The notes: generated by a model not told the origin, from the sequence alone. 58,001 nt of DNA from Chromatiales bacterium (GCA_026990045.1 JALSIK010000281.1:1-58001), one strand, 5' to 3'. Shown: positions 7,354 to 47,933, counted from the first letter of the stretch. Made by a program: numbers and translations.

Positions 7354-7359
7354 TGAGGC

Positions 7360-9217: not shown

Positions 9218-9223
9218 ATCCTG

Positions 9224-27363: not shown

Positions 27364-28521
27364 CTACCAGATGTACTGGAACCGGGTGGAGACGGCCTTG
27401 CCCGAGTCATAGGCCAGGGCCGTGGGTGCATCCAGGCGGGTGTCGATGTAGTTCACCATCAGGCGCATGCTCCGGTCGAGGTAATAGTTCACGCCGAGGG
27501 TCGCGTTGGTGCCCTTGCGGCCGCCGTTGTTGTCGATGCCGTCGAGCACGCTGTAGCGGGCCACCAGTTCCCAGGCGCCGGCGCCGGACCGTGGCTTCAC
27601 CCGGCCGAACCTGCCCTGCTTGTAGGGCCGTGATTCACCGGTGATGAACCAGCTGCCCAGCACGTAGTAGCCACTGAAGTCCGCGCCCGGGCTGGTGTCG
27701 GCGGAGTCGACGCTGGCGGTGTAGTATTCGCCCTGCAACGAGAACGGCCCCATGACCATGGCGGCTTCCAGGTTGGTGATGCGCAGGCTGTCGGCACTCG
27801 ACAGCGCATAGCTGGTGACGATCTTGTCGGCCGTGTGCACCTCGGCCCGCTCCTTGAACTGGTAGCCGTTGCTGCCCAGGTCGCGGCGGCTGTACCCCAG
27901 GCCCAGGTGCAGCACGCGCGCCGGGGCATGGACGGGCGTGAACACCAGGCGTCCGGTCACGGCATAGAGTTGCCGGTTCCCGTTGAGGGCGTCGTCGCCG
28001 TCACTGAACAGCCCCGCCCGCCAGCCGAAGGTCTTGTTGCCGCCCTTGAAACTGATCCCGATGTTCCGGCTGGGGGCGAAGGCGTCCGTGACCATGGCGC
28101 GTTCGATGGTGGAGATGTACTTGGAGCTGGTCAGTTCCTCCAGTCCCATGGGCTCCTTGTGCTGGCCGATGGTCATGGTCACGCTCTCCCCCTTGCGCTG
28201 GATGTAGGCGTCCTTGATCTTGGCCTTGGCGCTGCCGTCGAAGTTGATCTGGAGCTTACCCTTCCAGCGCTTGTCGAGCTGGCTGGTGACGGCGATGCGG
28301 GCCCGGCGGATCTCGGTCTGGCTGCCGCCGGCGCCCCCGTTTGACGCATTGTGCGCCTGGTCGAAGCGGTCCCAGTCGTACATGAGGCGGCCGTTGATCT
28401 TGAAGGCGCTCTCCCCGCTCCTGGCCTTGAGCGTGCCGTGCTTGACCACGGCACCCTCCGCGGCCAGCACGGAACCGGATGCCGCCAGCATGACGGAAAT
28501 GGCAATCAGCGATTTGTGCAT
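27364..28521 (-). CDS. phosphate-selective porin O/P family
   Basis: Signal peptide MHKSLIAISVMLAASGSVLA. ..FKINGRLMYDWD.., ..EIRRARI.., and terminal ..STRFQYIW, typical of OprO/OprP-type porins. Confidence 0.85.
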   Translation of the reverse strand: MHKSLIAISVMLAASGSVLAAEGAVVKHGTLKARSGESAFKINGRLMYDWDRFDQAHNASNGGAGGSQTEIRRARIAVTSQLDKRWKGKLQINFDGSAKAKIKDAYIQRKGESVTMTIGQHKEPMGLEELTSSKYISTIERAMVTDAFAPSRNIGISFKGGNKTFGWRAGLFSDGDDALNGNRQLYAVTGRLVFTPVHAPARVLHLGLGYSRRDLGSNGYQFKERAEVHTADKIVTSYALSSADSLRITNLEAAMVMGPFSLQGEYYTASVDSADTSPGADFSGYYVLGSWFITGESRPYKQGRFGRVKPRSGAGAWELVARYSVLDGIDNNGGRKGTNATLGVNYYLDRSMRLMVNYIDTRLDAPTALAYDSGKAVSTRFQYIW

Positions 28522-28626
28522 GTCGTCGTTCCCCGAACGTGAGTCGTTGTCGTTGCGGCCATGCCGTGATGGCCGAATGGCGAACGGGAGGATGCCCCGC
28601 GCGGATGACCCGCGCGTGACCGCACG

Positions 28627-28644
28627 GTGACAGTCGCATGACGG
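28627..28644 (-). promoter_or_regulatory. Pho-box-like site (CCGTCAT-gcga-CTGTCAC on the minus strand)
   Basis: Two 7-nt direct repeats with a 4-nt spacer, matching 13 of 14 repeat positions of CTGTCAT-N4-CTGTCAY. Lies 106 nt upstream of the porin start. Confidence 0.45.
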
Positions 28645-28816
28645 CTGCTCACGCCCCGTCCACCATGGGCTTCGGGGCATGGCACGGGCACCGGAGGCGG
28701 GGGGAGGCGGGGGGAGGCGGGAGGGGAAGGGCGGGAAGGATCCGGCCGGGCGTCGCCCGGGAGGACACCGGCCGGCCGCGGGCGGCGCCGGGATGCCTGC
28801 CCGCAATGTGACGCCG

Positions 28817-28834
28817 TTTTCACAAAGTGTTCAT
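28817..28834 (+). promoter_or_regulatory. weak Pho-box-like site (TTTTCAC-aaag-TGTTCAT)
   Basis: 7-4-7 architecture with partial matches, 72 nt upstream of the alkaline phosphatase ATG. Confidence 0.25.
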
Positions 28835-28905
28835 CACGGGATCACCTGCGGCGGCCATCATCCCCCGCGACTGGAGACGCAAACCAAGACCGTTGGAGGG
28901 GAACC

Positions 28906-30501
28906 ATGAAACATTCCAGGACCATGATCCTTGCCCTGGCCGCGGTGGGCGGCGCGGGCCTGGGCGGCGCCGGCCACGCCGGGGAGGCCGAGACTCCCGG
29001 CTACTGGTACCACGCCGGCCAGGCCGCCGTGGCCCGGCTGGCCTCCCGGCGGCCCGGACAGGGGCGGGCGAAAAACGTCATCCTGTTCGTCGGTGACGGC
29101 ATGGGAATCAGCACCGTGACCGCGGCCCGTATCCTCGAAGGCCAGCTGCGTGGTGAGTCCGGCGAGGAGAACGTGCTGAGCTTCGAGACGCTGCCTTACA
29201 CCGCCCTGGCCAAGACCTACAATACCAACCAGCAGACTCCCGATTCGGCGGGTACCATGACGGCCATGATGACCGGGGTGAAGACCAAGGCCGGGGTGAT
29301 CGGCGTGGATCAGACCGTCGCCCGCGGCGACTGTGCGTCCAGCCGCGGCAAGGAGCTGGTCACCTTCCTCGAGCAGGCCGAGATGGCCGGCAAGGCGACG
29401 GGGGTGGTCACCACCGCCCGGCTGACCCACGCCACGCCCGCGGCGACGTATGCGCACACGCCCGAGCGCAACTGGGAAGACGACCACGACCTCACGGCCG
29501 AGGCACGGGCCAACGGGTGCAAGGACATCGCCCGCCAGCTCATCGAGTTCCCCCATGGCGACGGCATCGAGGTGGCGTTGGGTGGGGGACGGCGCAGCTT
29601 CTGGCCCCGGGACCTGGCCGACCCGGAGGATCCCGGCAAGACCGGCGAGCGGGACGACGGGCGCAACCTGGCCGAAGAGTGGGTTCAGCGTTACGAGCAG
29701 GCCGCCTTCGTCTGGAACAAGGATCAATTCGATGCCGTTGACCCGCGCCGGGTGCGGCACCTGCTGGGCCTGTTCGACCGTTCGCACATGGAGTACGAGG
29801 CCGATCGGGAGTACGACACCGGCGGGGAGCCCTCGCTGGCGGAGATGACCGGCAAGGCCATCGACATCCTGGCACAGAACCGCGAGGGCTATTTCCTGAT
29901 GGTGGAGGCCGGGCGCATCGATCACGGCCATCACGCCGGCAACGCCTACCGGGCGCTGACCGACACCATCGAGCTGGCCGAGGCGGTGAAGACCGCGCTG
30001 GCCAAGGTGGATCGCGAGGAGACGCTGATCATCGTCACCGCCGACCACAGCCACGTGTTCACCATCGCCGGATATCCCACCCGCGGCAACCCCATCCTGG
30101 GCCTGGTGGCGGGCAACGACAGCCGCGGCGAACCCACGGGCGAGCCGGCGCGCGCCGCCGACGGCCTGCCGTACACCACCCTCGGCTACGCCAACGGCCG
30201 CGGCTTCGCCATGCTGGAGCGCGGCGGAGACACCCGCTACGGCGAGCCCATCGCCACCGGCCGGCTGGTCGATCTCTCCGGCTTCGACACCGGGGACGAA
30301 GGCTTCCACCAGGAGGCCCTGGTCCCGCTGGGCGCGGAGACCCATGCCGCCGAGGACGTGGCCGTGTATGCCGGCGGTCCCGGCGCGTGGCTGATGCGTG
30401 GCGTACTGGAACAGAACGTGATTTACCACGTCATGGCCCGCGCCGCGGGCATTGCCGGCCGGTGGGATCGTGACGAGGGCCGATGGCGCGCGCGGGATTG
30501 A
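28906..30501 (+). CDS. phoA: alkaline phosphatase (PhoA family), secreted
   Basis: ..VILFVGDGMGISTVTAARI.., nucleophile region ..TPDSAGTMTAMMTG.., ..EAGRIDHGHH.., and ..TADHSH... Confidence 0.9.
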   Translation: MKHSRTMILALAAVGGAGLGGAGHAGEAETPGYWYHAGQAAVARLASRRPGQGRAKNVILFVGDGMGISTVTAARILEGQLRGESGEENVLSFETLPYTALAKTYNTNQQTPDSAGTMTAMMTGVKTKAGVIGVDQTVARGDCASSRGKELVTFLEQAEMAGKATGVVTTARLTHATPAATYAHTPERNWEDDHDLTAEARANGCKDIARQLIEFPHGDGIEVALGGGRRSFWPRDLADPEDPGKTGERDDGRNLAEEWVQRYEQAAFVWNKDQFDAVDPRRVRHLLGLFDRSHMEYEADREYDTGGEPSLAEMTGKAIDILAQNREGYFLMVEAGRIDHGHHAGNAYRALTDTIELAEAVKTALAKVDREETLIIVTADHSHVFTIAGYPTRGNPILGLVAGNDSRGEPTGEPARAADGLPYTTLGYANGRGFAMLERGGDTRYGEPIATGRLVDLSGFDTGDEGFHQEALVPLGAETHAAEDVAVYAGGPGAWLMRGVLEQNVIYHVMARAAGIAGRWDRDEGRWRARD

Positions 30502-30538
30502 AGGAGAAAACGGCGGCAGGGATGCCGCACGCGCCCAG

Positions 30539-30565
30539 GGCCCTGCTCCGGCAGGGCCTTTTTTT
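30539..30565 (+). terminator. rho-independent terminator of the phosphatase gene
   Basis: GGCCCTGC-tccg-GCAGGGCC followed by TTTTTTT. Confidence 0.7.
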
Positions 30566-30681: not shown

Positions 30682-31131
30682 TCAGCCCGGCGCGGCGGCG
30701 GCGATGTCCTTGAGCCGCGAGCGCAGGCCGGCCCAGCCCATGCCCAGGTTCACCGCCCGGGTGGTGACCAGCACCACCAGCAGGTCGGGGCGGTCGGGCA
30801 CCGCGCTGATGAAATGAAACACCCCGCCGGTGGCGAACTGCATCTCGTGCAGGCTGTGCCGGATCGCCTCGCCCTTGGCCTGTCCCAGCATCTTTTCCAC
30901 CGTGGCCACCGCCTTGCCCCGGAACAGGTCCACGGTGGCCGCGGCCAGGGTGTCCAGCAGGGACTGGGTGAACCAGGACACGTGGTGGGCCACGCCCAGC
31001 AGCAGGCCCGATTCCTGGTCCACCACCGCCGCGGCCAGGGCGTGGTCCACGGTCTCCACCATCTCGCGGCAGATGTCGTTGAGGTTGGACATGGCGGGCC
31101 GGGCCGGCGCCGGAGCCTGATCCGGGTGCAT
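30682..31131 (-). CDS. divergent Roadblock/LC7-like protein
   Basis: The ATG at 31131 is 2 nt after the upstream stop; alternative ATG at 31092. Same size and alpha-beta pattern as the preceding Roadblock protein (..ALAAAVVDQESGLLLGV.. ..GGVFHFISAVPDRPDLLVVLVT..). Confidence 0.6.
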   Translation of the reverse strand: MHPDQAPAPARPAMSNLNDICREMVETVDHALAAAVVDQESGLLLGVAHHVSWFTQSLLDTLAAATVDLFRGKAVATVEKMLGQAKGEAIRHSLHEMQFATGGVFHFISAVPDRPDLLVVLVTTRAVNLGMGWAGLRSRLKDIAAAAPG

Positions 31132-31133
31132 GG

Positions 31134-31568
31134 TCAGCTTCCGGCCACTGCGGCGATGGTCTCGGCGGCCTGGCGCGCGTGGGCCAGGCACACCCCCAGG
31201 TTGGCGCCGGCCCGCGTGAACACGGTGAGCAGCAGCCGCGGTCCGGCATGGAGCAGGAAGATGCGCCCGCCCTCGCCCTCGATGAGCACGTTGCGCGGCT
31301 CGCCGCGCGCGCCTTCCCGGGCCAGGGTGTCGCACAGGGCCAGCAGGGCGCCGCTCATGGCGGCGAAGCGGTGGCGGTCGAGACCGGCGGGCAGGCGCTC
31401 GGCCCAGGCCACGCCGTCGGCACTGGAGACGATGGCGCCGTCGATGTCCTCGGCGAACTGGATCATCTGGTCGATGACCTGCCCGATGGCCTCGCGCACC
31501 GGGGCCGGGGCGGGGCCGTCGCCGGCCTCGCGGCTGAGGCGATCGATGACCTGGTCGATGATCTGCAT
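31134..31568 (-). CDS. Roadblock/LC7 (MglB/CvnB-like) protein
   Basis: GAGGAGA RBS. ..IDGAIVSSADGVAWAERLP.. ..MSGALLALCDTLARE.. ..VLIEGEGGRIFLLHAGPRLLLTVFT.., typical of the Robl_LC7 fold. Confidence 0.7.
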   Translation of the reverse strand: MQIIDQVIDRLSREAGDGPAPAPVREAIGQVIDQMIQFAEDIDGAIVSSADGVAWAERLPAGLDRHRFAAMSGALLALCDTLAREGARGEPRNVLIEGEGGRIFLLHAGPRLLLTVFTRAGANLGVCLAHARQAAETIAAVAGS

Positions 31569-31591
31569 GCGGTTCTCCTCGCGCCGGCGGC

Positions 31592-32122
31592 TCAATGGCC
31601 CAGCACGGCCAGCAGGGCGTGGATGAGCACCTTGACGTCCTCCGGGTTGCGGGCGTCGATCTCGAACACCGGCACCACCTGGTTGCGCTCCAGCAGCCGG
31701 GCCTGGAACGCCTCCAGCGGTACGGTGGCGGCGAGGTCGGACCGCGTGAGCCCGATGACCACGCCGGTCTCGCGGATGAAGTCGGCGAAGGCATCGAGGT
31801 AGAACTCCATCTGCGCCACCGGGTCGGGATGGTCGCAGTTGACCAGCAGGACCAGGCCGATGCCGCCCCGGGCGAGGATGGACCACATGAAGTCGAAGCG
31901 CTCCTGTCCCGGCGTGCCGTACAGGTGCACCCGCGTGCCGTCGTCCAGCAGCAGGTAGGCATAGTCCATGGCCACGGTGGTGGTGGACTTGAGGGCCCAG
32001 GCGCCGTCGGTGCAGGGCACGTCGGTGCCCACCGGCGGGGTGTCGGCGATGGCGCCGATGGCGGTGGTCTTGCCGGCCCCCACCGGGCCGGTGAAGATGA
32101 TCTTCTCCGTCGCCGCGAGCAC
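31592..32122 (-). CDS. Ras-like small GTPase (MglA/CvnD-type ATP/GTP-binding protein)
   Basis: GTG at 32122 after GAGGGGA. P-loop GPVGAGKT, switch II YGTPGQERF, and an atypical G4 (LLVNCD). Confidence 0.75.
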   Translation of the reverse strand: MLAATEKIIFTGPVGAGKTTAIGAIADTPPVGTDVPCTDGAWALKSTTTVAMDYAYLLLDDGTRVHLYGTPGQERFDFMWSILARGGIGLVLLVNCDHPDPVAQMEFYLDAFADFIRETGVVIGLTRSDLAATVPLEAFQARLLERNQVVPVFEIDARNPEDVKVLIHALLAVLGH

Positions 32123-32136
32123 GGTGCCGTGTCCCC

Positions 32137-33129
32137 TCAGCGCCGCAGGCTCAGGCGCCGGGCGATGCGCGCCAGCAGGCCGCGCCGGGATGGCGGCGGG
32201 GCGGGCGGCGCCGCCGCCGGGGCGTCGTCGCCGGCGCGCTCCAGCAGGCCCACGGCGAAGGCCGCGTTGTGGAAGTCGATGGTGGTGGCCAGCGGCACCC
32301 CGGTGGCGGCGGCCAGCCCCGCCAGCGTGTGCGGGGCCCGGGCCAGGGCCGCGGCCAGCTTCAGGTGGTCGGGGTGAAAGGCGTGGCGGGTGAAGTTGGG
32401 CCAGGCCTTGAGCCGCACCGGGGTCTCGGTGTCGTGGCCGGGCAGCAGGCGGCCGCCCGAGCAGGCCAGGGCCGCGTCCCACAGCAGGGTGCTCAGCGAC
32501 GTGACCTGGACCTCGCCTGCCGGGGCCCGCTCGCCGGGCGCCGGCTCGCGCACGGTGAAGGCCCCGGCGGGGCGGGTGAGCAGGCGGTGCAGGGCGGCGG
32601 TGTCCAGCGTGCTGGTGACGCTGCCGGCCTCGCCGTCGATCCAGGCCGATCCCGCGCCCGCCACCTCCAGCACCAGGCGCCGGCGCTGGTGGCGGGCGTC
32701 GAGCAGGGTACGGAACACGTCCACCGGCGTGGCCGCGGCCGGGCGGGCGGGCGCGTCCTGGCGCGACAACTGGGCCGCCATCTTTTCGTACAGCCGGCCC
32801 AGCAGGTCGCGGAAGCGGCCGATGTCCACCGGCTTGCGCACCGCGATGAGATTGCGCCCGATGCGGGCCTCCGCCGCCAGCAGCAGCTTGACCTGTCCCG
32901 GCCGCGCCGCCGCCAGCGCCTCGCGCCCTTCGCGGTGGTCGGCGTCCAGCACCAGCAGGTGCGCGCGCCGCGGCTGTGCCTCCAGCAGGGCGAAGGGCTT
33001 GCCGTCGTGGGCCAGCAGCTTGACGGCGGTGGTCAGGGCCAGCCGGTCCTGGTCGCCGAGGCCGGCCACGGCCAGGTACAGGGTGTGGCCGTGGGGCACG
33101 GAATGCTCGTTGTCGGGCGAAAGCGCCAT
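32137..33129 (-). CDS. hypothetical protein: degenerate receiver-like N-domain plus DUF742/CvnC-like winged-helix C-terminus
   Basis: ATG at 33129. Receiver-like beta3/beta5 motifs are HLLVLDAD and LIAVRKPVDIGRF. The C-terminus HTLAGLAAATGVPLATTIDFHNAAFAVGLLE resembles the DUF742 HTH. Confidence 0.6.
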   Translation of the reverse strand: MALSPDNEHSVPHGHTLYLAVAGLGDQDRLALTTAVKLLAHDGKPFALLEAQPRRAHLLVLDADHREGREALAAARPGQVKLLLAAEARIGRNLIAVRKPVDIGRFRDLLGRLYEKMAAQLSRQDAPARPAAATPVDVFRTLLDARHQRRRLVLEVAGAGSAWIDGEAGSVTSTLDTAALHRLLTRPAGAFTVREPAPGERAPAGEVQVTSLSTLLWDAALACSGGRLLPGHDTETPVRLKAWPNFTRHAFHPDHLKLAAALARAPHTLAGLAAATGVPLATTIDFHNAAFAVGLLERAGDDAPAAAPPAPPPSRRGLLARIARRLSLRR

Positions 33130-33215: not shown

Positions 33216-33231
33216 TGTGATCCCACTCACA
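33216..33231. promoter_or_regulatory. perfect CRP/Vfr-type palindrome TGTGA-tcccac-TCACA
   Basis: Read directly, 87 nt upstream of the minus-strand start at 33129. Confidence 0.65.
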
Positions 33232-33282: not shown

Positions 33283-33298
33283 TGTGAGCCCACTCACA
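33283..33298. promoter_or_regulatory. perfect CRP/Vfr-type palindrome TGTGA-gcccac-TCACA
   Basis: Read directly, 122 nt upstream of the ATG at 33420. Its spacer is nearly identical to that of site 33216..33231. Confidence 0.65.
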
Positions 33299-33419
33299 CA
33301 TTCCCCGCCGCGGCATCCACCGCCCGCCGGCGGGGACGATATGGGCACACGGACGCCGGGGCGTGGCCACGACACGCCGCACGGTGAACCCGGGAACCAA
33401 CGGAAAGCAGGCGGCCACC

Positions 33420-34307
33420 ATGAACGACAAGCCCGTGTACGCGGTGCGGCTGGAAAATGTCGCCGACAGCGAGCGCATCATCTTCAAGCTGATCTTTTCC
33501 GTCTCCCGCAACAGCCCCAGCCGGCCCCACGGCTACGCGCTGGCGGAGGCGGGGACGGCGGACATCGTCATCGGCCCGGAGCCGGCCGCCGCCGGCGGCG
33601 CCCGGGTGCTGCCCCTGCGCGATGCCGGCGACGGCCGCGGGCCCGGCCTGGTGCGGCCCCTCATCGCCAGCCGGGTGCTGGCGGCGCTGGATGCGCTGGT
33701 CGCCGCGCCGGCGGCGGAGGATGCCGGGGCAGACGCGGGATCGGCCGCCCCGGACGCCGCCCCGGTGGTGGAGTTCAGCATCAGCGAGGAAGAGGCCTCG
33801 GAGCTGGCCATCGTCCACGACGAGAGCCTGTCCAACCCGGCCAACGAGGCCGCGGAGGCGCCCGCCGATGCCGCACCCGCGGCCACCGTGCATCCCCTGC
33901 CGGGTGCGAAGGAGGCGCCGCGGCCGCGGGCCCTGGTGGTGGACGACAGCGCCTCGGTGCGCAAGCAGCTCGAGCTGGAGCTGGACCTGTTCGAGGTGGA
34001 GGTGGACTACGCCGCCGGCGGCGAGGAGGCGCGCGGCCACCTCGCCGCCCGCCGCTACGACGTGGCCTTTCTCGACGTGGTGATGCCGGACGCCGACGGC
34101 TTCGACCTGTGCAAGGCCATCAAGGCCGCCTCGCCCGCCACCCGCGTCATCATGCTCACCGGCAAGGCGACCCAGGCGGACAAGATCAAGGGCACCCTGG
34201 CCGGTTGCGACGCCTACCTGGTGAAGCCGGTGGGGCGCGAGATGTTTCAGTCCACGGTGCGCAGGTTCCTGCAGTTGCGGCAGGCCCGCAGCGCCATGGG
34301 CGCGTGA
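33420..34307 (+). CDS. response regulator, PilG-position, with N-terminal pseudo-receiver and acidic/Ala-rich linker
   Basis: C-terminal canonical receiver (ALVVDDS..VAFLDVVMPDADG..VIMLTGK..AYLVKP). The N-terminal ~100 aa are receiver-like but lack the acidic pocket. Start uncertain (track start 33363). Confidence 0.75.
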   Translation: MNDKPVYAVRLENVADSERIIFKLIFSVSRNSPSRPHGYALAEAGTADIVIGPEPAAAGGARVLPLRDAGDGRGPGLVRPLIASRVLAALDALVAAPAAEDAGADAGSAAPDAAPVVEFSISEEEASELAIVHDESLSNPANEAAEAPADAAPAATVHPLPGAKEAPRPRALVVDDSASVRKQLELELDLFEVEVDYAAGGEEARGHLAARRYDVAFLDVVMPDADGFDLCKAIKAASPATRVIMLTGKATQADKIKGTLAGCDAYLVKPVGREMFQSTVRRFLQLRQARSAMGA

Positions 34308-34343: not shown

Positions 34344-34709
34344 ATGGCCATCAACAAGGTGCTCGTGGTGGACGACTCGCCGGCGGAGCTGTCGGCCATC
34401 CGCAACATCGTGGCCGACACCGGCTGCATGGTCATCGCCGCCACCAACGGCCGCGAGGCGGTGGAGCTGGCGCGGCGCGAGTCGCCGGACATCATCTTCA
34501 TGGACATCATCATGCCGGAGATGGACGGCTACGAGGCCACGCGCCGGCTGGCCAACGATCCCGCCACCCGCGACATCCCCATCATCTTCGTCAGCAGCAA
34601 GAACCAGAAGGCGGACAAGATCTGGGGCCAGATGCAGGGCGGCAAGGGCTACATCACCAAGCCCTTCGAGCCGGCCCAGATCGTCGAGCATCTCAAGGCC
34701 CTGGGCTGA
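34344..34709 (+). CDS. single-domain CheY-like response regulator (PilH position)
   Basis: VLVVDDS..IIFMDIIMPEMDG..IIFVSSK..GYITKP. GAGGAGGAG RBS. Confidence 0.9.
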   Translation: MAINKVLVVDDSPAELSAIRNIVADTGCMVIAATNGREAVELARRESPDIIFMDIIMPEMDGYEATRRLANDPATRDIPIIFVSSKNQKADKIWGQMQGGKGYITKPFEPAQIVEHLKALG

Positions 34710-34719: not shown

Positions 34720-35262
34720 ATGACCGGTGACGTCACCGACGCCGAGGCCCTGCTGGCCCGGCCCGGGGACGCGGCCCCGGGCGCAGGCCTGCGCTACGGC
34801 TACCGGCTCGGCGGCCTGGCCCTGCTGGTGGAGGCCGGCCTCAAGAGCGAGGTGACGGCGGCCGCGCGCCTGTGCCCGGTCCCGCGCACCCCGCCGGCCC
34901 TGGCCGGGCTCATCAACGTGCGCGGCAACATCGTGCCGGTGTTCGACCTGGAGCAGGCCCTGGGCCTGCCGCCGCCGGAGCAGGCGCCGGAGCACGTGCT
35001 GGTGCTGGGCGAGGGCGAGGCCGCCGCGGGGGTGCGCATCGCCCGCCTGCCCGAGTCGGTGCGGCTGGCCGCACCGGCGCCGGCCCAGCCGCCGCCGGCG
35101 CTGGCCGGGTACGCCGGCGAGGCCTGGCACGATGCCGGCGGCACCCTGTGGTGGGCCCTGGACCACCGGGCCTGTTTCCGGCACCTGCAGCGCCAACTCA
35201 GCGGGCTGGCCCCCGGCGGGCCGCCCCCCCATCCGGCCGCGGCGACCGCGGCCTCCGCCTGA
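34720..35262 (+). CDS. CheW-like coupling protein (PilI position)
   Basis: ..PPALAGLINVRGNIVPVFDLEQALGL.. is typical of CheW. Confidence 0.8.
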   Translation: MTGDVTDAEALLARPGDAAPGAGLRYGYRLGGLALLVEAGLKSEVTAAARLCPVPRTPPALAGLINVRGNIVPVFDLEQALGLPPPEQAPEHVLVLGEGEAAAGVRIARLPESVRLAAPAPAQPPPALAGYAGEAWHDAGGTLWWALDHRACFRHLQRQLSGLAPGGPPPHPAAATAASA

Positions 35263-35280: not shown

Positions 35281-37149
35281 ATGCTCAACCGACTCAAGAT
35301 CGCCACCCGGCTGGTGGTCCTCATCGCGGTCCAGATCACGGTGCTGGGCCTGGTGGGCGCCGTGGCCATCACCGCGCTCAACAACGCCTTCAACACCACC
35401 GCCCTGCTCAACACCAGTGTCATCGAGCAGGTGAAACTCAACCAGCTCAACGAGACCGTGCGCGGCGACCTGCTGGAGACGGTCAACCGCGCGGCCGCGG
35501 GCAAGCTGTCCTGGGAGGCGCTGGACGAGGCCCTGCTGGCGGCACGCAACCTGTTCGTCAACAACTGGGACGAGTACAGGGAGGAGAAGACCCCGGAGCA
35601 GGTGCGTGACATCGAGGCCTCGCTGGGGGCGGAGTACCAGGCGGTGCTCGCGGCCTTCGACCGCCTGCGCGGGTTCCAGGCCGCGCGGGACCGCGAGGGA
35701 CTGGCCGCCTTCGCGGAGGGCGAGCTGCCGCGCATGGTCAACCCCTTCCTGCTGGAGCTCAACGAGCGGGTGGCCGAGCAGCAGCTCGCCTCCGAGGCGC
35801 TGTTCGAGAGCTCCCTGCGCGAGGGCCGGCTGGCCCTGTGGGGTGCCGCCGGCGTGGTGGTGGTGGGCCTGCTGGTGGCGGGCCTGCTGGGTTATCTCAT
35901 CTACCTGGGCATCAACCGCTCCATCCGGCGCATCCAGGCCACGGTGGCGGAGGTGTCCGAGGGCAACTACTACGCCCGCACCGGCCTCACCGGCACCGAC
36001 GAGCTGGCCGAGCTGGGCGGGGCCTTCGACGCCCTGCTCGAGGACAAGGTGGCCAGCCTGGTCCGGGCGGAACAGGAGAACGAGCGCCTCAACGAATCGG
36101 TCATCGCCCTGCTGGAGGCGGTGTCCCGGCTCAGCCAGCGCGACCTCACCGTCAAGGTGCCGGTGACCGAGGACGTGACCGGCCCGGTGGCCGACGCCCT
36201 GAACCAGCTCACCGGCGAGACCTCGCGCGTGCTCCAGGGCGTGCGCCGCATCTCGGAGGAGGTGGCCCGGGCCTCGGCCATGGTCAAGGCCCAGTCGGAC
36301 AACGTCATCGCGGTGGCGGCCGAGGAACGGCGCGAAGTGGAGGAGACCGCCCGCGAGCTGGCCCACGCGGTGGAGACCATGGCCCACATCGCCGCCCTGG
36401 CGGAGGAGTGCGACCGGGCCGCGGAGCAGGCCATCCGCACCACCCACACCGCGCTGGAGACCGTGACCCGCACGGTGGAGGGCATCAACGGCATCCGCGA
36501 GACCATCCACGAGACGGAAAAGCGCATCAAGCGCCTGGGCGAGCGCTCGCAGGAGATCAGCCGCGCGGTGAACCTCATCAACAGCATCTCCGAGCGCACC
36601 CACATCCTCGCCCTCAACGCCTCCATGCACGCCGCCTCCGCCGGCGAGGCCGGCAAGAGCTTCGCCGTGGTGGCGGACGAGGTGCAGCGCCTGGCGGAGA
36701 GCGCGCGCGACGCCACCGCCCAGATCTCCACCCTGGTGTCCAACATCCAGGTGGAGACCGCCGACACCGTGGCCACCATGAACGAGGTGATCACCCAGGT
36801 GGTGGAAGGCACCCGCCTGGCGCAGGAGGCGGGCCAGCAGATGCAGCGCACCGAGGAGAGCACCGCCGGCCTGGTGGAGGCGGTGCGTCGCATCAACGAG
36901 CGCTCGCAGGACCAGGCTCGGCTGTCCAATGCCCTGCAGGGGCGCGCCGGCCAGATCCAGGAGAGCACGCGCAAGACCAGCCAGCAGCTCCAGGAGCAGA
37001 CCCAGCAGACCACCCGCCTGGTGGAGTACGCCCGCGGCCTGCTCAACGCGGTCAACGTCTTTCGCCTGCCCGAGGGCGATGCGGCCCCGGGGCTGGCCCC
37101 GCTGGCCCCGGCCCCGGCGGGCGGCGAGCTGGAGAAAAAGGCCTCCTGA
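35281..37149 (+). CDS. methyl-accepting chemotaxis protein, PilJ-like
   Basis: Two TM segments around a helical periplasmic domain, then HAMP. The signalling-domain hairpin is ..RTHILALNASMHAASAGEAGKSFAVVADEVQRLAE... The post-HAMP segment ..DLTVKVPVTEDVTGPVADALNQL.. resembles pilus-class MCPs as I recall them. Confidence 0.85.
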   Translation: MLNRLKIATRLVVLIAVQITVLGLVGAVAITALNNAFNTTALLNTSVIEQVKLNQLNETVRGDLLETVNRAAAGKLSWEALDEALLAARNLFVNNWDEYREEKTPEQVRDIEASLGAEYQAVLAAFDRLRGFQAARDREGLAAFAEGELPRMVNPFLLELNERVAEQQLASEALFESSLREGRLALWGAAGVVVVGLLVAGLLGYLIYLGINRSIRRIQATVAEVSEGNYYARTGLTGTDELAELGGAFDALLEDKVASLVRAEQENERLNESVIALLEAVSRLSQRDLTVKVPVTEDVTGPVADALNQLTGETSRVLQGVRRISEEVARASAMVKAQSDNVIAVAAEERREVEETARELAHAVETMAHIAALAEECDRAAEQAIRTTHTALETVTRTVEGINGIRETIHETEKRIKRLGERSQEISRAVNLINSISERTHILALNASMHAASAGEAGKSFAVVADEVQRLAESARDATAQISTLVSNIQVETADTVATMNEVITQVVEGTRLAQEAGQQMQRTEESTAGLVEAVRRINERSQDQARLSNALQGRAGQIQESTRKTSQQLQEQTQQTTRLVEYARGLLNAVNVFRLPEGDAAPGLAPLAPAPAGGELEKKAS

Positions 37150-37155: not shown

Positions 37156-40100
37156 ATGGCGATCCCGGTGGAACAGCGCAGCTCCCTGGAGCTGGAGGTG
37201 AGCGGGGTGGTGGCCGAGATGCTGGAGGCCTTCGCCGCCACCGGTGACGGCGGGGCCGATGCCGCCGCCAGCGGCGATGCCCTGGCGCGCTACCAGCGGC
37301 GGGTGGCCCGCATCGGCATGGCCGCCGGCCGTTTCGGGCTCACCGGGCTGCAGGACACCTGCGTGGAGCTGCAGGACCGGCTGCGCGCGCTCAAGCGCCG
37401 CGGCACCGGCCTCAGCGCCGAAGAACGGGAGCTGCTGGAGGAATGGCCGCTGCTGGTGATGGGGTACATCAACGCCCCCCACGACCCGGCCGCGGCGCAG
37501 GCACTGGTGGACTTTCTCCAGCGGCCCGCCTGGGGCGAGCCGGTCTCGCCCGAGACCGGGGCCGAGATCCGCAGCGCGCTGGGCAGCGACCCGGCCCTGC
37601 CGGCACCGCCCGCGGCCGGCGACGACCCGCCCCGAGACGATGCCACCGGGCACGATGCCGGGCCCGCCGGCGACGGCACCGGCGGCCTGGCCGGCCTGGG
37701 CGGGCCCCTGCGGGAGGAAGTGGAGGAGGCCATGGGCGACTGCCTGCTCCGGCTGGCCGAACCCGGGGTGGCGCCGGAGGAGGCCCGGGCGGCGCTGACC
37801 CATTGCGCCGAGCGCCTGGAGCTCCTGGCCATGACGGCGGCCACCGCCGGCCTGGCCGGTTTCATGGACGCCTGCCAGATCTTCCAGGCCGGCCTGCGGC
37901 GCCTGGCCGCCGCCGGCCGCGTGCCGGCGACGGAGGAGCTGGACGCCCTCTACCGGTGGGCGGGCCTGGTGGGGGCCTGGCTGGAGGCGCCGCACGACGC
38001 CGGGCGGGCCGAGGCCCTGGTGGACTTTCTCCAGGCCCTGCCCTGGGGCGAGCCGGTGGACGCAGAGCAGGCCGCCATCCTGCGCGGGCTGCTGGCACCC
38101 GAGGAGATCCACATCGACGCCCCGGCCGGCGGGCCGGAGGCGGCGGGCGGGGCCGGCGAAGAACCGCCGGAGATCCCGCCGGCCTACCGCGAGCTGGTGG
38201 GGCTGCTGCGCATGGAGCTGGAGCAGTCGCAGCCGGAACTGGAGTCCGCCCTGGCCGCCGCCGCCGGCGACGACATCCCGGCCGGGGACCGTCATGCCGC
38301 CTGGCGCCAGGTCCTGGATCGGCTGGAGCGCTTCGCCGGCGCCGCCGCCACCCTGGGCCTGCACGGCCTGGCCGAGGCCTGCGGGCACGTCCATGCCTGT
38401 GCCGAGTTCATCGACGCCACCGGCGAGCCGCTGGCGCCGGCGCAGCACCGCTGGTTTGCGGACTGGCCCCGGCGGGCGCGCGCCTACCTGGAGACGCTGG
38501 TGGACCCGGCCGCCTGCACCGCCCTGGCGGACTACCTGGGCGAGGCGGACTGGGGCTGTGCACCCGATGCCGCCGCGCGCGAGCGGCTGGTGCAGTCCCT
38601 GGCCCGGCCCGAGGTGGCGCTGGAAGAAGAGGAACTGGCGCCGCGCCAGGCCGAGGCCCGCGCCGAGGACGTCTCCCTGGCCCTGCCCGACGACGTCAAC
38701 CCGCAGCTGCTGGACAGCCTGCTCCAGGAGCTGCCCCACTACACCGCCGATTTCTCCGCCAGCATCACGCGCCTGGCGGAGGGCGCCGGCACCCGGGCGG
38801 ACGTGGAGACCGCCCAGCGCATCGCCCACACCCTCAAGGGCTCGGCCAACACCGTGGGCGTGGCGGGACTGGCCAACCTCACCCACCACATGGAGGACAT
38901 CCTCGAGGCCCATGCCCGCGCCGGGCGCCTGCCCCCGGCGCCCCTGGTGCGGGTGCTGCAGAGCGCCGCCGACGTGCTGGAGATGATGAGCGAGGCCCTG
39001 CTGGGGCAGGGCGAGGCCCCGGCCCATGCCCGCGAGGTGCTGCAGGAGGTGCTGGACTGGGCCAACCGCATGGACCTGGAAGGGGTGCCGGAGGATGCGC
39101 CCGCCGCCCCGGAGCCGGAGCCCGCCCCGGCGGCGGAGTCCCCGGCGGCGGAGGCCGGCCCGGTGCTGCGCATTCCCGCCCGCCTGGTGGACGAGCTGCT
39201 GCGGCGGGTGGGCGAGTCCCTCATCGTCACCGCCCAGCTCCGCGAGCGCCTGGGCCGGGCGGCGGCGGAGCTGGCGGGCCTGCGCGAGCGCAACGAGCTG
39301 CTGGGACGCCTGACCCAGGAGCTGGAGCAACTGGTGGACGTGCAGGGGATCCACGCCGGACGCGGCCGCGAGGCCGGCGGCGAGTTCGATGCCCTGGAGC
39401 TGGAGCAGTACAACGCCCTGCACACCGTCACCCACCGCCTGGTGGAGGCGGTGGCCGACAGTCGCGAGATGGGCCAGGGCATGGAGGAGCAGCTCGGGGC
39501 CTTCGACGGCCTGCTGGCGGACCAGTCGCGGCTGCAGAAGGAGACCGAGGAGCTGGTCATGGAGACCCGCATGGTGCCGGTGCAGAACCTGGTCCCGCGG
39601 CTGCAGCGGGCGGTGCGCCAGGCCTGCCGCCTCACCGGGCGCGACGCGGTGCTGGAGGTGTCGGGCGCCGACACCCTCATCGACGCCCAGGTCCTGGACC
39701 AGCTCGCCGATCCCCTCCTGCACGTGCTGCGCAACGCGGTGGACCACGGCATCGAGCCGCCGGACCGGCGGGCCGCCGCCGGCAAGCCGGAGCGGGGCCG
39801 CATCCGCCTGGCGTTCCGGCGCGAGGGCGACCACATGGTGGTGTGCTGCGAGGACGACGGCGCCGGCCTCGACCGCGAGGCCATCCTGCGCCGGGCCCGC
39901 GCCCGCGGCCTGGTGGGCGCGGACGAGACGCCGGCCGACGAGGTGCTCGACGCCCTGGTGCTGGTGCCCGGCTTCTCCACCCGCGAGGAGGTCTCCCAGG
40001 TGTCCGGCCGCGGCGTGGGCATGGACGTGGTCAACACCCGCGTGCGGGAGATGAAGGGCACCCTGCGCCTGCACTCGGAGCCGGGCCGCGGCTGCCGGGT

Positions 40101-40977: not shown

Positions 40978-41783
40978 TGTTCCGAAGCCGCCTCGTGTTG
41001 ATCCTGGCCCTGCTGGCCGCCGTGCCCGCGGCGGCGGAGGAGGCCGCCGAGACCTATACCTTCGGCATCGTGCCGCAGCAGTCGGGCAGCCGCCTGTCGC
41101 GGCTGTGGTCGCCCATCCTCGCCTGGCTCGAGGAGCGCAGCGGGCTGCGGCTGCGCTTTGCCACCACCCGCAACATTCCCACCTTCGAAAAGCGCCTGGC
41201 CCAGGGCAAGTACGATTTCGCCTACATGAATCCCTATCACTACATCCAGTTCCACGACGCCAGCGGCTACACCGCCTTCGCCCGGGCCCGCGACAAGCGG
41301 CTCAAGGGGATCCTGGTGGTGCGGCGCGACAGCCCGTTCCGGCGCCTGGCGGACCTGGACGAGCGGGACCTGGCGTTTCCGTCCAACGCCTTTGCCGCCA
41401 ACCTGGTGCCGCGGGCGGTGTTCCGCCAGGAGGGCATCGACGTGGAGGCCCACTTCGTCTCGTCCCACGACTCGGTCTACCGCAACGTGGCCAAGGGCCG
41501 CTATCCCGCCGGGGGCGGGGTGATGCGCACCTTCCGCAACACGCCGGCGGCCTACCGCAGGCAGTTGCGGGTGCTGTGGACCTCGGAGGGCTACACGCCC
41601 CATGCCTTCGCCGCCCACCCGCGGGTGCCGCCGGAGGCGGTGGAGCGGCTGCGCGCGGCCATGCTGGCCATGGACCGCGATCCCCGCGGCCGCGCCCTGC
41701 TCAAGCGCATCCGCCTCAAGGGCATCGAGGCCGGCCGTGACGCCGACTGGAACGACGTGCGCGAGCTGGCGATCAACGACTGA
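40977..41783 (+). CDS. PhnD-like (phosphate/phosphonate ABC-type) periplasmic substrate-binding protein
   Basis: The ATG overlaps the ChpA stop (GTGATG). Signal peptide MFRSRLVLILALLAAVPAAA. ..YTFGIVPQQS.. ..KYDFAYMNPYHY.. is typical of the PhnD/SBP-3-like family. No permease or ATPase gene is adjacent. Confidence 0.7.
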   Translation: MFRSRLVLILALLAAVPAAAEEAAETYTFGIVPQQSGSRLSRLWSPILAWLEERSGLRLRFATTRNIPTFEKRLAQGKYDFAYMNPYHYIQFHDASGYTAFARARDKRLKGILVVRRDSPFRRLADLDERDLAFPSNAFAANLVPRAVFRQEGIDVEAHFVSSHDSVYRNVAKGRYPAGGGVMRTFRNTPAAYRRQLRVLWTSEGYTPHAFAAHPRVPPEAVERLRAAMLAMDRDPRGRALLKRIRLKGIEAGRDADWNDVRELAIND

Positions 41784-42744: not shown

Positions 42745-43030
42745 GACAGCTCCCCACGTCTGGCAGGCTGCGAAAGGGCGGTTCCGGCTTGTGCCCCACC
42801 GTGGCGCCCGGTGCCGGCAGGACACCTGCCTCAGCGCTGTATAGCGTTCGATACTACCAAAGTATTAGCGGAATGGCCCCACGATCCGGTCCGCCGCTTT
42901 CGATCACAAATTGGCAACTGATTGTTTTTGCCGCCCTTTGTTTTCGAGTCCCGCAAAGGGGCCGCCATTCGTCGCGGGGGCGGGGCGATGCAAAGGTTTT
43001 GTCTCCGCCGGTGCCGCCCGGGCAAAAAAG

Positions 43031-47756: not shown

Positions 47757-47933
47757 AGCGATTCCTCGACCGATATCCAAGCCACGGGCCCCGGCGGCGG
47801 TCCCCCGCCCCGGCGCGAAGGCGCGTATTCTAATTCAGTATGCGGGCACAGGTCATCCCGCCCGCATCCCGGATTCGGCGCCGGGTCGGGGCCGGCTGAC
47901 GGGAAATCAATGGGTTGCGGTGTCCGCCCGGGA

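Follow-up and report, generated by a model that had tools for sequence, protein, structure and literature searches.

What is a small GTPase gene doing between a gene for a receiver-like, winged-helix protein and two Roadblock genes in a gammaproteobacterium, and does its place head-to-head with a chemosensory operon say anything about its role? The question comes from 58,001 nucleotides of a Chromatiales bacterium ('the window' means this whole stretch), where an earlier note had proposed the block as an undescribed, conservon-like or MglAB-like system. The minus-strand block at 30682-33129 holds four co-directional genes:

32137-33129, minus strand: A330, the partner protein (330 aa; translation)
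31592-32122, minus strand: small GTPase of the Group 3 MglA family (176 aa, GTG start)
31134-31568, minus strand: Robl1, a Roadblock/LC7 protein of MglB/CvnB type (144 aa; Pfam Robl_LC7)
30682-31131, minus strand: Robl2, the other MglB-type subunit, a divergent protein of Roadblock fold (149 aa, or 136 aa from M14 at 31092)

The gaps are 14, 23 and 2 nt, and the re-derived gene positions agree with the coordinates and strand given earlier. Homologues of Robl2 (135 aa) begin at the residue equivalent to M14; its true start may therefore be 31092, making the last gap 41 nt. At least 21 gammaproteobacterial genomes, counted at species level (MAG species), carry the same four genes in this order, so the arrangement is not chance; conservation in related genomes, which the earlier note had put forward as a check, is thus borne out. 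The block is best explained as a single operon for a Group 3 MglA-family G-protein switch. Homologous loci are found in Chromatiales, Ectothiorhodospiraceae, Thioalkalispiraceae, Zoogloea and Neisseria, and in the loci compared the A330-type gene is always directly upstream of the GTPase gene.

A module of the Group 3 MglA kind

Wuichet and Sogaard-Andersen (2014, Genome Biol Evol 7:57; PMC4316618) defined a Group 3 MglA system with the order DUF>MglA>MglB>MglB in beta- and gammaproteobacteria, listing Acidithiobacillus, Methylomonas, Teredinibacter, Nitrosococcus, Xanthomonas and Stenotrophomonas among the gammaproteobacteria, and Neisseria. Group 3 MglA is 175-188 aa long (Table S2 of PMC4316618). 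Groups 2-5 have the G3 motif GTPGQ and, in G2, a threonine replacing the intrinsic arginine of Group 1; in Group 3, G4 deviates from [NT]KxD in having no lysine, and G5 is DAR. Next to mglA lie coupled MglB (Roadblock) genes, either one or two. The partner, which had no Pfam match, was already predicted to have a receiver-like N-terminus and a wHTH-like C-terminus, with its middle region described as a 'linker' (PMC4316618).

The GTPase, a single-domain protein of the Ras superfamily, matches Pfam ATP_bind_1 (E 9.8e-11) and Ras (1.9e-5). Its motifs are G1 GPVGAGKT; G2 K45-x-T-T-T (T48-T49), a threonine run with no arginine next to the threonine; G3 GTPGQ, within a YGTPGQ invariant in 121 of 121 homologues; G4 T126-R-S-D129; and G5 D156-A-R158. 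Across those 121 homologues G4 reads T-[RK]-x-[GD], the lysine-less deviation from [NT]KxD, and D156-A-R158 is conserved. The Ras-like assignment of the earlier note thus stands, while its G4 does not: LLVNCD is the end of strand beta4, and HMMER alignments to Rab27A/Sec4 place the Rab NKxD on T126-R127-S128-D129. The GTPase shares 50% identity with a Group 3 GTPase of Neisseria, next to which an A330-like protein, homologous to A330, and two Roadblock-like proteins are encoded. In a neighbour-joining tree (a distance tree of limited sample, not a full phylogeny) it groups with beta- and gammaproteobacterial modules, apart from Streptomyces CvnD.

Because gene order, GTPase length, G2-G5 motifs, partner architecture and host group all match PMC4316618, we are confident that the module is a Group 3 MglA system; all five published features compared (G2/G3, G4/G5, Roadblock genes, partner protein, and distribution with GTPase placement) are found here. 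The module was accordingly catalogued in 2014 and is not undescribed. The earlier note knew of no characterised gammaproteobacterial counterpart; the module type is known from comparative genomics, though literature searches found no biochemical characterisation or bench study of a Group 3 MglA system, and no experiment showing GAP, GEF or pilus function for any member. An orphan mglB allele of Snodgrassella alters soft-agar colony-edge flares (PMC11112851), and the Tn-seq of Powell et al. (2016), as cited in that paper, found mglB genes beneficial for gut colonisation. These mglB results weakly suggest that Group 3 systems have a bearing on how pili behave.

The partner protein and the Roadblock pair

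The AF2 model of A330 (pLDDT 88.7) has a receiver-like N-domain and a C-terminal wHTH, and its top Foldseek matches are REC domains (E 7e-3, prob 1.0). Along the chain lie a pseudo-receiver (17-125), a middle domain (138-223), the wHTH (238-298) and a basic amphipathic C-terminal helix (313-327). No Pfam or NCBIfam model matched A330, whose family numbers 2424 representatives at E<=1e-3 and is without a Pfam model. In an alignment of 85 sequences the receiver-like domain largely keeps D62 (72/85), S/T85 and a near-invariant K99-P100; it does not have the acidic Mg-binding pair after beta1, which makes phosphorylation doubtful. The folded middle domain, missing from the earlier note, has alpha-beta-beta-beta-alpha-beta topology in the model. 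This is compatible with PATAN (DUF4388), and the domain is possibly PATAN-like; PF14332 (DUF4388) gave no match to it even at E<=10.

The C-terminus had been likened to the DUF742 winged helix of CvnC. The DUF742 profile (PF05331), which scores a real CvnC at 8e-26, matches neither A330 nor any of 85 relatives. In hhalign A330-C aligns collinearly with 9 DUF742 sequences, including a C-terminal LLxRIxxRL helix, at Prob 64%; with 78 sequences Prob falls to 28%, and the HTH of CRP, which is unrelated, gives DUF742 just as good a score. On these comparisons the A330 C-terminus is best called a generic wHTH, and membership of DUF742 is not demonstrable. What survives of the earlier reading is the degenerate receiver and the winged helix, which model and Foldseek both support. 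Within the putative recognition helix (residues 280-293) the K/R frequency is <=0.13 at every column, and the 85 sequences hold no conserved basic or polar DNA-reading residues there; weak matches to MarR_2 or IclR HTH models turn up in a small number of family members. In Ralstonia, where the order is again partner-GTPase-Roadblock, a stand-alone 124-aa protein resembling A330-C is encoded directly upstream of the GTPase.

Both Roadblock assignments of the earlier note hold. Robl1 matches Pfam Robl_LC7 at 7.3e-11; its PDB sequence matches (7f8m, 2.9e-10; CvnB5 3leq, 5e-9; MglB, E 0.19) place it nearer CvnB5 than MglB, and it keeps, in SADG, the Asp-Gly pair that is usual in MglBs whose coupled MglA belongs to Groups 2-5. 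Robl2 has no Pfam match, but its AF2 model (pLDDT 89.6) has the Roadblock topology alpha-beta-beta-alpha-beta-beta-beta-alpha, and Foldseek matches it to a Streptomyces Roadblock protein and to M. xanthus and T. thermophilus MglB (E ~3e-8, prob 1.0). The profile searches suggested earlier thus found a Roadblock domain in Robl1 and a GTPase domain, and no DUF742 in A330; the structural searches suggested for A330 and Robl2 gave the folds described above.

The divergent chemosensory operon and the shared promoter

Upstream of A330 the window contains:

33216-33231, no strand assigned: predicted CRP/Vfr-type box 1 (TGTGATCCCACTCACA); its centre lies ~94 bp before the A330 start codon
33283-33298, no strand assigned: predicted CRP/Vfr-type box 2 (TGTGAGCCCACTCACA); its centre lies ~130 bp before the ATG (33420) of the PilG-like gene
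33363-34307, plus strand: PilG-like response regulator (probable true start 33420; Pfam REC 6.4e-23)
34344-34709, plus strand: PilH-like single-domain CheY (profile match)
34720-35262, plus strand: CheW, PilI-like (profile match)
35281-37149, plus strand: MCP in the PilJ position, HAMP and MCPsignal (profile match)
37156-40977, plus strand: hybrid CheA, ChpA-like, with Hpt, dimerisation, HATPase, CheW and C-terminal REC (profile match)
40961-41740, plus strand: conserved ORF of 259 aa, overlapping the cheA end by 17 nt
42070-42825, minus strand: gene for a Vfr-type cAMP receptor protein (CRP); it and the chemosensory operon are convergent

The 259-aa ORF has no Pfam or NCBIfam match and is conserved in loci L005, L006, L009, L010 and L011. 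The order of two CheY-like proteins, CheW, MCP and a CheA with C-terminal REC is conserved in nine loci, and from this order and the CheA-REC fusion the operon would belong to the pilus class. The MCP has no PilJ-domain match, one Hpt was detected in CheA, and the window contains no PilK/ChpB, CheR, CheB or pilus genes. The earlier note had the block head-to-head with a pilus-class chemosensory operon. The head-to-head placing beside a PilG/PilH/PilI/PilJ/ChpA-like operon is as stated; the linkage is limited to nine loci and this window, which form one clade in the GTPase tree, and it arose once. Neither the sister clade nor the Zoogloea, Neisseria and Ralstonia loci examined show the linkage. 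A single origin could mean inherited synteny.

The PilG-like protein consists of an N-domain resembling that of A330, a conserved acidic motif (FSISEEEASELAIV.DE.LSNPAN) and a canonical REC (10 orthologues aligned). In hhalign the two N-domains align over 99 columns (Prob 82%, P 1.1e-5) with a score of 32.6, against 10.9 +/- 1.7 for column-shuffled controls and 12-14 for true REC domains; in hmmsearch, a profile-sequence comparison, the PilG-like N-domains are the top non-family matches, at marginal E-values (0.03 to 1.4).

The 290 bp of intergenic region between the A330 and PilG-like genes carry two perfect TGTGA-N6-TCACA boxes. Across the whole window, sites with <=1 mismatch to the CRP box number 4 (0.53 expected; none of 100 shuffles reached 4). 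The predicted boxes are conserved in all linked loci; with <=1 mismatch they are ~48-fold enriched upstream of A330, essentially only in linked loci, and no other conserved palindrome was seen upstream of A330, unlinked loci having none. The CRP gene scores 277 bits with NCBIfam NF008732 (equivalog; cutoff 266), matches Pfam cNMP_binding and HTH_Crp_2, and is syntenic in 7 related loci. Since the shared promoter carries two predicted boxes and the CRP gene is syntenic, both divergent operons are probably co-regulated by cAMP-CRP. The boxes could also serve the chemosensory operon only.

A possible switch, other readings and known systems

On balance we favour a GTPase/GAP/partner switch that is coregulated with, and possibly wired to, the pilus-type chemosensory pathway, a function that we infer. 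The moderate confidence attached to the whole blends high confidence in Group 3 identity with a tentative view, somewhat short of even, of chemosensory coupling and pilus output. Robl1 and Robl2 would form a heterodimeric GAP in place of the asymmetric homodimer that MglB forms in Myxococcus and Thermus, with Robl1, keeper of the Asp-Gly pair, contacting the GTPase. A330 would be an input, exchange-factor or scaffold subunit, its wHTH binding protein rather than DNA and its C-terminal helix binding membrane or the GTPase. In position it may be an analogue of CvnC/MfpC; MfpC (DUF742) is the reported GEF, and MfpD (Roadblock) the GAP, of MfpB (PMC11343762). As DUF742 homology of A330-C is not established, the GEF analogy would draw on position and architecture only. 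In this clade the switch is transcribed divergently from the Tfp-type chemosensory operon; because the PilG-like N-domain is of the same type as that of A330, the phosphorelay may be physically connected to the switch, by analogy with Frz -> RomR -> MglA/MglB. The output would likely be pilus polarity or dynamics.

The coupling step is where a plainer account competes: the adjacency may be inherited synteny, with the GTPase module serving some other process, as it must wherever it stands alone, which is the case in many genomes. The linkage arose once, the examined Neisseria locus has no chemosensory gene beside the module, and the neighbours in the sister clade and the beta-proteobacterial variants are unrelated (fatty-acid genes, Metallophos, thiamine genes, PAS/PBP). 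Yet the nine linked loci keep the head-to-head layout while their A330 identity falls to 34%, CRP boxes and a flanking CRP gene are likewise retained as A330 diverges, and the two divergent first genes share a rare domain type; we regard synteny without coupling as somewhat unlikely.

Two further accounts turn on what A330 is. Wuichet and Sogaard-Andersen first proposed a transcriptional output for Group 3 (PMC4316618), in which A330 would be an atypical response-regulator-like transcription factor, with its binding to DNA controlled by the GTPase and Roadblocks. The receiver-plus-wHTH architecture and the occasional MarR_2 or IclR matches suit such a factor, but the recognition helix is without DNA-reading residues, the only conserved upstream palindromes are CRP boxes, and the C-terminal helix and the Ralstonia stand-alone protein favour protein or membrane binding, so that this output seems unlikely. 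Alternatively, a true conservon might have moved into Proteobacteria, with A330-C as CvnC/DUF742, Robl1 as CvnB and a kinase encoded outside the block (the adjacent CheA, for example) acting as CvnA on the receiver-like domain. That would accord with the leaning of Robl1 towards CvnB5, the 31-37% identity of the GTPase to Streptomyces CvnD proteins (the KxTTTVAMD switch I and GTPGQ are common to both), the smaller DUF742 alignment and the retained D62, S/T85 and K99-P100. The want of a CvnA-type kinase, the different gene order, the missing DUF742 profile match, the lower DUF742 Prob in the wider comparison and the equal score of DUF742 with a CRP HTH, the missing acidic pair and a published phylogeny that separates Group 2 from Group 3 (PMC4316618) all weigh against it, and we hold it improbable.

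Set beside known systems, the switch and its neighbours have several partial likenesses. The chemosensory operon shares gene order with the Pil-Chp/Vfr-cAMP circuit of Pseudomonas aeruginosa, and a CRP/Vfr orthologue with CRP-type boxes at the cluster; it differs in having no PilK/ChpB, a shorter CheA (1273 aa), a ~170-aa N-terminal extension on the PilG-like protein and an attached GTPase module. To our knowledge the P. aeruginosa Pil-Chp locus is without such a module. Deinococcus and Thermus plasmid PATAN(DUF4388)-wHTH/GTPase/Roadblock modules have the order partner, GTPase, Roadblock, small ORF, with GTPases 40-45% identical to this one. Their partners align collinearly, in 173-186 columns, with A330 134-330, and the aligned part takes in the wHTH and a terminal LLxRLLxxL helix; in profile-profile comparison the Thermus partners score 31.7 (shuffles 12.1 +/- 1.9), at a Prob of only 41%. 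Those partners match PF14332 directly (1e-8 to 7e-10), unlike the A330 middle domain, and are without the pseudo-receiver.

The GTPase and Roadblock module is related both to MglAB and to conservons, as the earlier note had held. Group 1 MglA/MglB of Myxococcus xanthus and Thermus thermophilus, with RomR/RomX and Frz, shares the logic of GTPase and Roadblock-fold GAP, the MglB fold on which Robl2 superposes, and an association with receiver-domain proteins and, in the linked clade, a chemosensory operon. Group 1 is defined by a TVPGQ G3 and an intrinsic arginine finger beside the G2 threonine (PMC4316618); the GTPase here has neither, two distinct Roadblock proteins stand in place of a homodimer, and the partner genes lie in the same operon, with no RomR/RomX. 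With conservons (AGPS; CvnA-D, and the Mfp operon, MfpB-E) it shares the GTPase super-group (ATP_bind_1), a CvnB-like Roadblock protein and a wHTH protein encoded directly upstream of the GTPase with a similar terminal helix (LLxxVLxxL). Of the parts list claimed earlier, CvnB and CvnD counterparts are recognisable, while a CvnC counterpart is not demonstrable. All canonical conservons fetched for comparison carry a CvnA histidine kinase; neither the block nor its conserved neighbours include one, as had been noted. Nor do the A-B-C-D order and actinomycete host apply: the order here is partner-GTPase-Robl-Robl, with both Roadblock genes after rather than before the GTPase, in a gammaproteobacterium, and the partner has two extra domains.

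The closest likeness is to Group 3 itself, in gene content and order, GTPase length and motifs, partner architecture and host. The folded middle domain, where PMC4316618 has a linker, is a difference. Not previously reported are that domain, the head-to-head chemosensory linkage in one Chromatiales/Ectothiorhodospiraceae-type clade, the predicted CRP boxes in the shared promoter with a syntenic CRP gene, and a PilG-like regulator carrying the partner's type of N-domain.

The four genes and the motifs of the GTPase

Four open reading frames on the minus strand, in a window that is 68-76% G+C throughout, make up the GTPase module, and they were found exactly as the earlier note had described them, at 30682-33129, with intergenic gaps of 14, 23 and 2 nt.

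32137-33129, minus strand: A330, the 330-aa partner protein, first gene of the operon
31592-32122, minus strand: small GTPase, 176 aa, GTG start; Pfam ATP_bind_1 9.8e-11, Ras 1.9e-5
31134-31568, minus strand: Robl1, Roadblock protein, 144 aa; Pfam Robl_LC7 7.3e-11
30682-31131, minus strand: Robl2, Roadblock-fold protein, 149 aa

The profile searches that the note had proposed return a GTPase and a Roadblock protein with the values listed; the Pfam scan gave no match for A330 or Robl2, and NCBIfam adds nothing for the block. Homologues of Robl2 are 135 aa long and begin at the equivalent of its M14, which may put the last gap at 41 nt.

The surroundings on the Robl2 side call for brief comment. 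A gene for phosphate-selective porin O/P and one for a PhoA-type alkaline phosphatase (27364-30501) adjoin the operon. Between the phosphatase gene (28906-30501, plus strand) and the convergent Robl2 gene lies a G+C-rich hairpin followed by a T-run (30537-30560), terminator-like on the plus strand; candidates for the minus-strand operon are only weaker. As conserved neighbours of the block, the phosphatase and porin were rejected: they are not kept even in a 95%-identical relative (L005), where tblastn did not find the phosphatase gene, and the adjacency thus looks incidental. Elsewhere in the window, a phosphoribulokinase gene (46860-47780, minus strand), with the taxonomy of the closest MAGs, fits an autotrophic (Calvin-cycle) host of Chromatiales type.

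Three motifs of the GTPase are essentially invariant among 121 homologues: G1 (GPxGAGKT), switch I (K-x-T-T-T-V-A-M-D-Y) and G3 (Y-G-T-P-G-Q). The G4 motif had been mis-assigned to an atypical LLVNCD. In HMMER alignments the NKxD of Rab27A and Sec4 falls on T126-R127-S128-D129, so the true G4 is TRSD; the homologue alignment gives a family consensus of T-[RK]-x-[GD] and places G5 at D156-A-R158. Both the Rab/Sec4 alignment and family conservation rule out LLVNCD, which is the end of strand beta4. By sequence, the closest solved structures are Rabs; MglA matches weakly.

The partner protein and the two Roadblock proteins

An AlphaFold2 model of A330, built with 85 family members (pLDDT 88.7), divides the protein as follows.

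Residues 17-125: alpha/beta N-domain
Residues 138-223: middle domain, alpha-beta-beta-beta-alpha-beta-beta-alpha
Residues 238-298: winged helix-turn-helix (wHTH)
Residues 313-327: terminal helix

By sequence, A330 has no relatives among solved structures at E<=10. Receiver domains dominate the whole-chain Foldseek search (E 7e-3 to 2e-2, probability 1.0, target-normalised TM 0.5-0.6). Across the 85 sequences the phospho-acceptor position is Asp in 72 and Asn in 11; the end of beta4 carries S/T in 53; at K99, 65 sequences have Lys and 16 have Arg; P100 is invariant; and no acidic pair follows beta1. The N-domain is an atypical receiver, probably a pseudo-receiver, and the degenerate receiver that the first reading saw here is borne out. 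In these sequences no Lys or Arg is conserved along the ‘recognition’ helix of the wHTH, a finding that favours a protein binder over a transcription factor. The terminal helix is conserved, basic and amphipathic, and could bind the membrane or the GTPase. The family is large (a profile of seven A330 homologues run against 1.84 billion representatives gave, at E<=1e-3, 2424 representative clusters, of which 82 remain at E<=1e-30) and is without a Pfam model; the analysis divides this uncharacterised partner family into domains.

Robl2 was modelled by AlphaFold2 with 39 homologues (pLDDT 89.6; alpha-beta-beta-alpha-beta-beta-beta-alpha). Foldseek against the PDB matches the model to a Streptomyces avermitilis Roadblock (3kye) and to the MglB proteins of M. 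xanthus and T. thermophilus (E ~3e-8, probability 1.0); the second, divergent Roadblock proposed earlier is therefore real. The closest solved structures to Robl1 by sequence are an archaeal Roadblock (7f8m, 2.9e-10) and CvnB5 (3leq, 5e-9), with MglB farther (0.19). An Asp-Gly pair, noted for MglBs coupled to MglA of Groups 2-5 (PMC4316618), is present in Robl1 and absent from Robl2, which fits an asymmetric dimer.

In the Mfp conservon, MfpD is the GAP and MfpC the GEF (PMC11343762). By analogy with MglB and MfpD, Robl1 and Robl2 would together form a heterodimeric GAP; by analogy with MfpC, A330 might be an input, exchange or scaffold subunit, its wHTH serving for protein binding.

Conservation, chemosensory linkage and predicted CRP sites

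Relatives of A330 occupy 46 loci in the GTDB species set. The 21 full-length ones all lie in gammaproteobacterial MAGs (Chromatiales, Ectothiorhodospiraceae, Thioalkalispiraceae and Thiohalophilus), the nearest being a Chromatiales MAG with 95% identity. At these loci the four genes stay in order wherever the contig allows; the block is conserved.

The block of the window stands head-to-head with a chemosensory operon, and the same holds at nine of these loci (L005-L013); the operon encodes in order a PilG-like regulator, a single-domain CheY, CheW, an MCP and CheA (1273 aa, with Hpt, CheW and C-terminal REC); neither CheR nor CheB is encoded in this operon in the window and linked loci. A 259-aa ORF (40961-41740, plus strand), without Pfam or NCBIfam match, overlaps the cheA stop by 17 nt, is kept after cheA in L005, L006, L009, L010 and L011, and is a component of the operon. 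The linkage, claimed earlier with a ‘pilus-class’ operon, holds for the window and these nine loci, but not for the sister clade (L001, L002, L015-L025), Zoogloea/Accumulibacter, Ralstonia or Neisseria, where the chemosensory neighbour is absent; gene order and the CheA-REC fusion suggest the pilus class. A distance tree of the GTPases puts the linked loci into a single clade, so that the linkage arose once; it is kept despite divergence of A330 to 34% identity.

A beta-proteobacterial variant of the module is conserved in about 25 Zoogloea/Accumulibacter genomes (L026-L050; for example L047, Zoogloea oryzae, 6948-11580). Its first genes encode a Roadblock and a PAS protein, next come an ORF resembling periplasmic binding proteins and a small one, and the series ends with an A330-like protein of 450 aa, the GTPase and a 210-aa protein that matches Roadblock weakly.

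The 290-bp intergenic region between A330 and the PilG-like gene contains two predicted operators, and at the far end of the chemosensory operon a convergent gene encodes CRP.

33216-33231: perfect CRP/Vfr-type box (TGTGA-N6-TCACA), TGTGATCCCACTCACA
33283-33298: perfect CRP/Vfr-type box (TGTGA-N6-TCACA), TGTGAGCCCACTCACA
42070-42825, minus strand: CRP gene, NCBIfam equivalog NF008732 (277 vs cutoff 266 bits)

Only three perfect sites occur in the 58-kb window; with at most one mismatch there are 4 against 0.53 expected, a count reached by 0 of 100 shuffles. All nine linked loci (9/9) carry, in the 450 bp before A330, one to three sites (<=2 mismatches), and unlinked loci almost none; site density (<=1 mismatch) is ~1.1 per kb upstream of A330 vs 0.023 per kb elsewhere in the loci. 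The CRP gene is syntenic in seven related loci (L005, L006, L007, L010, L011, L012 and L013). Scanning the intergenic region for simple sigma-70 promoters gave no candidate, a result that carries no information at 72% GC. The remaining perfect box (13294-13309) precedes, by 36 bp, the gene of a protein with two tandem cNMP-binding domains (13345-14343, plus strand). A further cNMP-binding/rhodanese protein is encoded at 20371-21555, and genes for cyclic-nucleotide signalling abound in this region.

In the PilG-like protein, whose start is probably at 33420, the N-terminal ~100 aa form a conserved domain that aligns full-length with the A330 N-domain in profile-profile comparison (probability 82%, P 1.1e-5, 99 columns). 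This comparison scores 32.6; column shuffles reach 10.9 +/- 1.7, the reversed alignment 14.0, and each of the two N-domains 12-14 against a genuine REC alignment. When an HMM of the A330 N-domain was run against 7899 ORFs, the first matches outside the A330 family were three PilG-like N-domains, at marginal E (0.03-1.4). Between the N-domain and REC of the PilG-like protein (33420-33950, plus strand), an acidic motif, FSISEEEASELAIV.DE.LSNPAN, is strongly conserved (10/10 orthologues).

The CRP boxes and the N-domain type common to A330 and the PilG-like protein would, at the level of sequence, tie the GTPase operon to the chemosensory operon. In the linked clade, the GTPase module and the chemosensory pathway are probably expressed together under cAMP-CRP, and the two may be coupled via this N-domain; the most plausible output would be pilus polarity or dynamics.

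Conservons, plasmid modules and Group 3 MglA

Small Ras-like GTPases with Roadblock GAPs act in polarity in Myxococcus and in signalling in actinomycetes. The comparison with conservons and MglAB made in the earlier note stands for three of the parts: the GTPase is 31-37% identical to CvnD of Streptomyces plasmid conservons, with KxTTTVAMD and GTPGQ common to both; Robl1 is CvnB5-like; and Robl2 has an MglB-like fold. It is not demonstrated for the DUF742/CvnC-like winged helix read into the A330 C-terminus. Against nine DUF742 sequences from canonical plasmid conservons (CvnA-CvnB-DUF742-CvnD), hhalign gave a probability of 64% (P 6e-5) over the HTH, and at a relaxed threshold the alignment was collinear through the terminal helix (‘GLLARIARRL’ in A330, ‘LLRRVIRGL’ in DUF742). 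With 69 DUF742 proteins added from metagenomic conservons, gathered by a scan with a CvnD alignment, the probability for 78 sequences fell to 28%. The DUF742 profile scores equally well against an unrelated CRP HTH (29 vs 26), and PF05331 had no match in A330 or 85 relatives in the Pfam scan, where a real CvnC scores 8e-26. On these grounds DUF742 is kept as an analogy of position and architecture, not as a demonstrated membership.

Other modules carry the C-terminal part in different company. Ralstonia has a stand-alone 124-aa A330-C-like protein directly upstream of the GTPase (‘YLRTWPDF’ vs ‘RLKAWPNF’, terminal ‘LITRLWSRL’). On the R. solanacearum megaplasmid AP024102.1 (L052) this variant adjoins an hrpG paralogue and comprises the 124-aa protein, the GTPase, a 436-aa ABC-type ATPase/dual-specificity phosphatase fusion, a Robl2-like protein, a Roadblock protein, an HTH-containing protein and another Roadblock-like protein. 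Large plasmids of Deinococcus and Thermus (L062, L063, L144-L151) have the order partner-GTPase-Roadblock. The Thermus partners consist of PATAN (DUF4388, 1e-8 to 7e-10), wHTH and a terminal ‘LLQRVLRAL’ helix; the Deinococcus/Thermus partners are collinear with A330 residues 134-330 over 173-186 columns (probability 41%; score 31.7, column-shuffled controls 12.1 +/- 1.9). The alpha-beta-beta-beta-alpha-beta topology of the A330 middle domain is compatible with PATAN, and a PATAN-like middle domain is a lead. A 159-aa fourth gene in Deinococcus was ruled out as a Robl2 homologue, hhalign finding no similarity. The module is followed in Thermus by a gene with a protoglobin domain, which in T. 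brockianus comes immediately after the GTPase; several Deinococcus loci have an HD or HD-GYP gene next to the module.

The nearest described relative is a published class. Wuichet and Sogaard-Andersen (2014; PMC4316618) sorted the MglA homologues of prokaryotes into five groups: GTPGQ is common to Groups 2-5, in which Thr stands where Group 1 has its arginine finger; in Groups 2 and 3 the G4 is without lysine and the G5 is DAR; Group 3 is ‘almost exclusively’ beta/gamma-proteobacterial, with versions in Neisseria, Xanthomonas, Stenotrophomonas and Acinetobacter, and includes a protein for which Phyre2 predicted a receiver-like N-terminus and wHTH-like C-terminus. Table S2 of that paper gives ‘DUF>MglA>MglB>MglB>’, with MglA of 175-188 aa, for Acidithiobacillus, Methylomonas, Teredinibacter and Neisseria, and shorter variants for Nitrosococcus, Xanthomonas, Stenotrophomonas, Acinetobacter and Citrobacter rodentium. 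The features of the block coincide with this class, and the link was checked directly in Neisseria gonorrhoeae: its GTPase is 50% identical to that of the window, two Roadblock-like genes lie downstream, and the protein upstream has the A330 N-domain (hmmsearch 7e-12) and C-domain (tblastn 6e-8). The block is therefore a member of a bioinformatically defined class, not the undescribed system first supposed; that is, the original observation is confirmed and its interpretation partly supported.

Two loci differ in state. The module of one N. gonorrhoeae strain (L051, NZ_CP119140.1, 1381703-1390199) looks decayed, with the A330-like gene broken into two ORFs and the GTPase match spread over two frames; the record, 2.17 Mb, is chromosome-sized, though listed as ‘plasmid’ in PLSDB. 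A 50-kb conjugative plasmid of Acinetobacter wuhouensis (L152/L153, NZ_CP033119.1) has a GTPase (40% identical) and a Roadblock gene across the record origin; IS5 and IS3 transposases occupy the expected place of the partner gene, so this is possibly a truncated, mobile copy.

Literature searches by Group 3 locus tags and organism names found no biochemical or functional study of any member. The only experimental clue found, a hint, comes from Snodgrassella: a missense allele of an orphan Group 3 mglB changed soft-agar colony-edge flares (PMC11112851), and mglB genes were beneficial for gut colonisation in a Tn-seq study (Powell et al. 2016, as cited by PMC11112851).

Three contextual features are new, all in one clade: the chemosensory linkage, the predicted CRP operator and the common pseudo-receiver-type domain; they make an uncharacterised Group 3 family open to experiment. 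The conserved 12-kb cluster of GTPase module, Tfp-type chemosensory operon, CRP gene and CRP boxes yields a testable hypothesis of Group 3 function, namely that the module works with the pilus chemosensory pathway under cAMP-CRP control. A bolder proposal, which we consider rather unlikely, is that a Chromatiales/Ectothiorhodospiraceae-type clade has wired a Group 3 switch into pilus-type chemosensory and cAMP-CRP control, A330 and the PilG-like protein talking through a common pseudo-receiver that had gone unrecognised. In its broader form, DUF742, the A330 C-half and the PATAN-wHTH first-gene partners (Groups 2, 3 and Deinococcus-Thermus) would be exchange factors or adaptors of a single homologous family. 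If the coupling is real, connecting a G-protein polarity switch with a chemosensory phosphorelay would not be peculiar to myxobacteria, and the clade would have an independent, Frz/RomR/MglA-like way to steer pilus polarity outside the Myxococcota.
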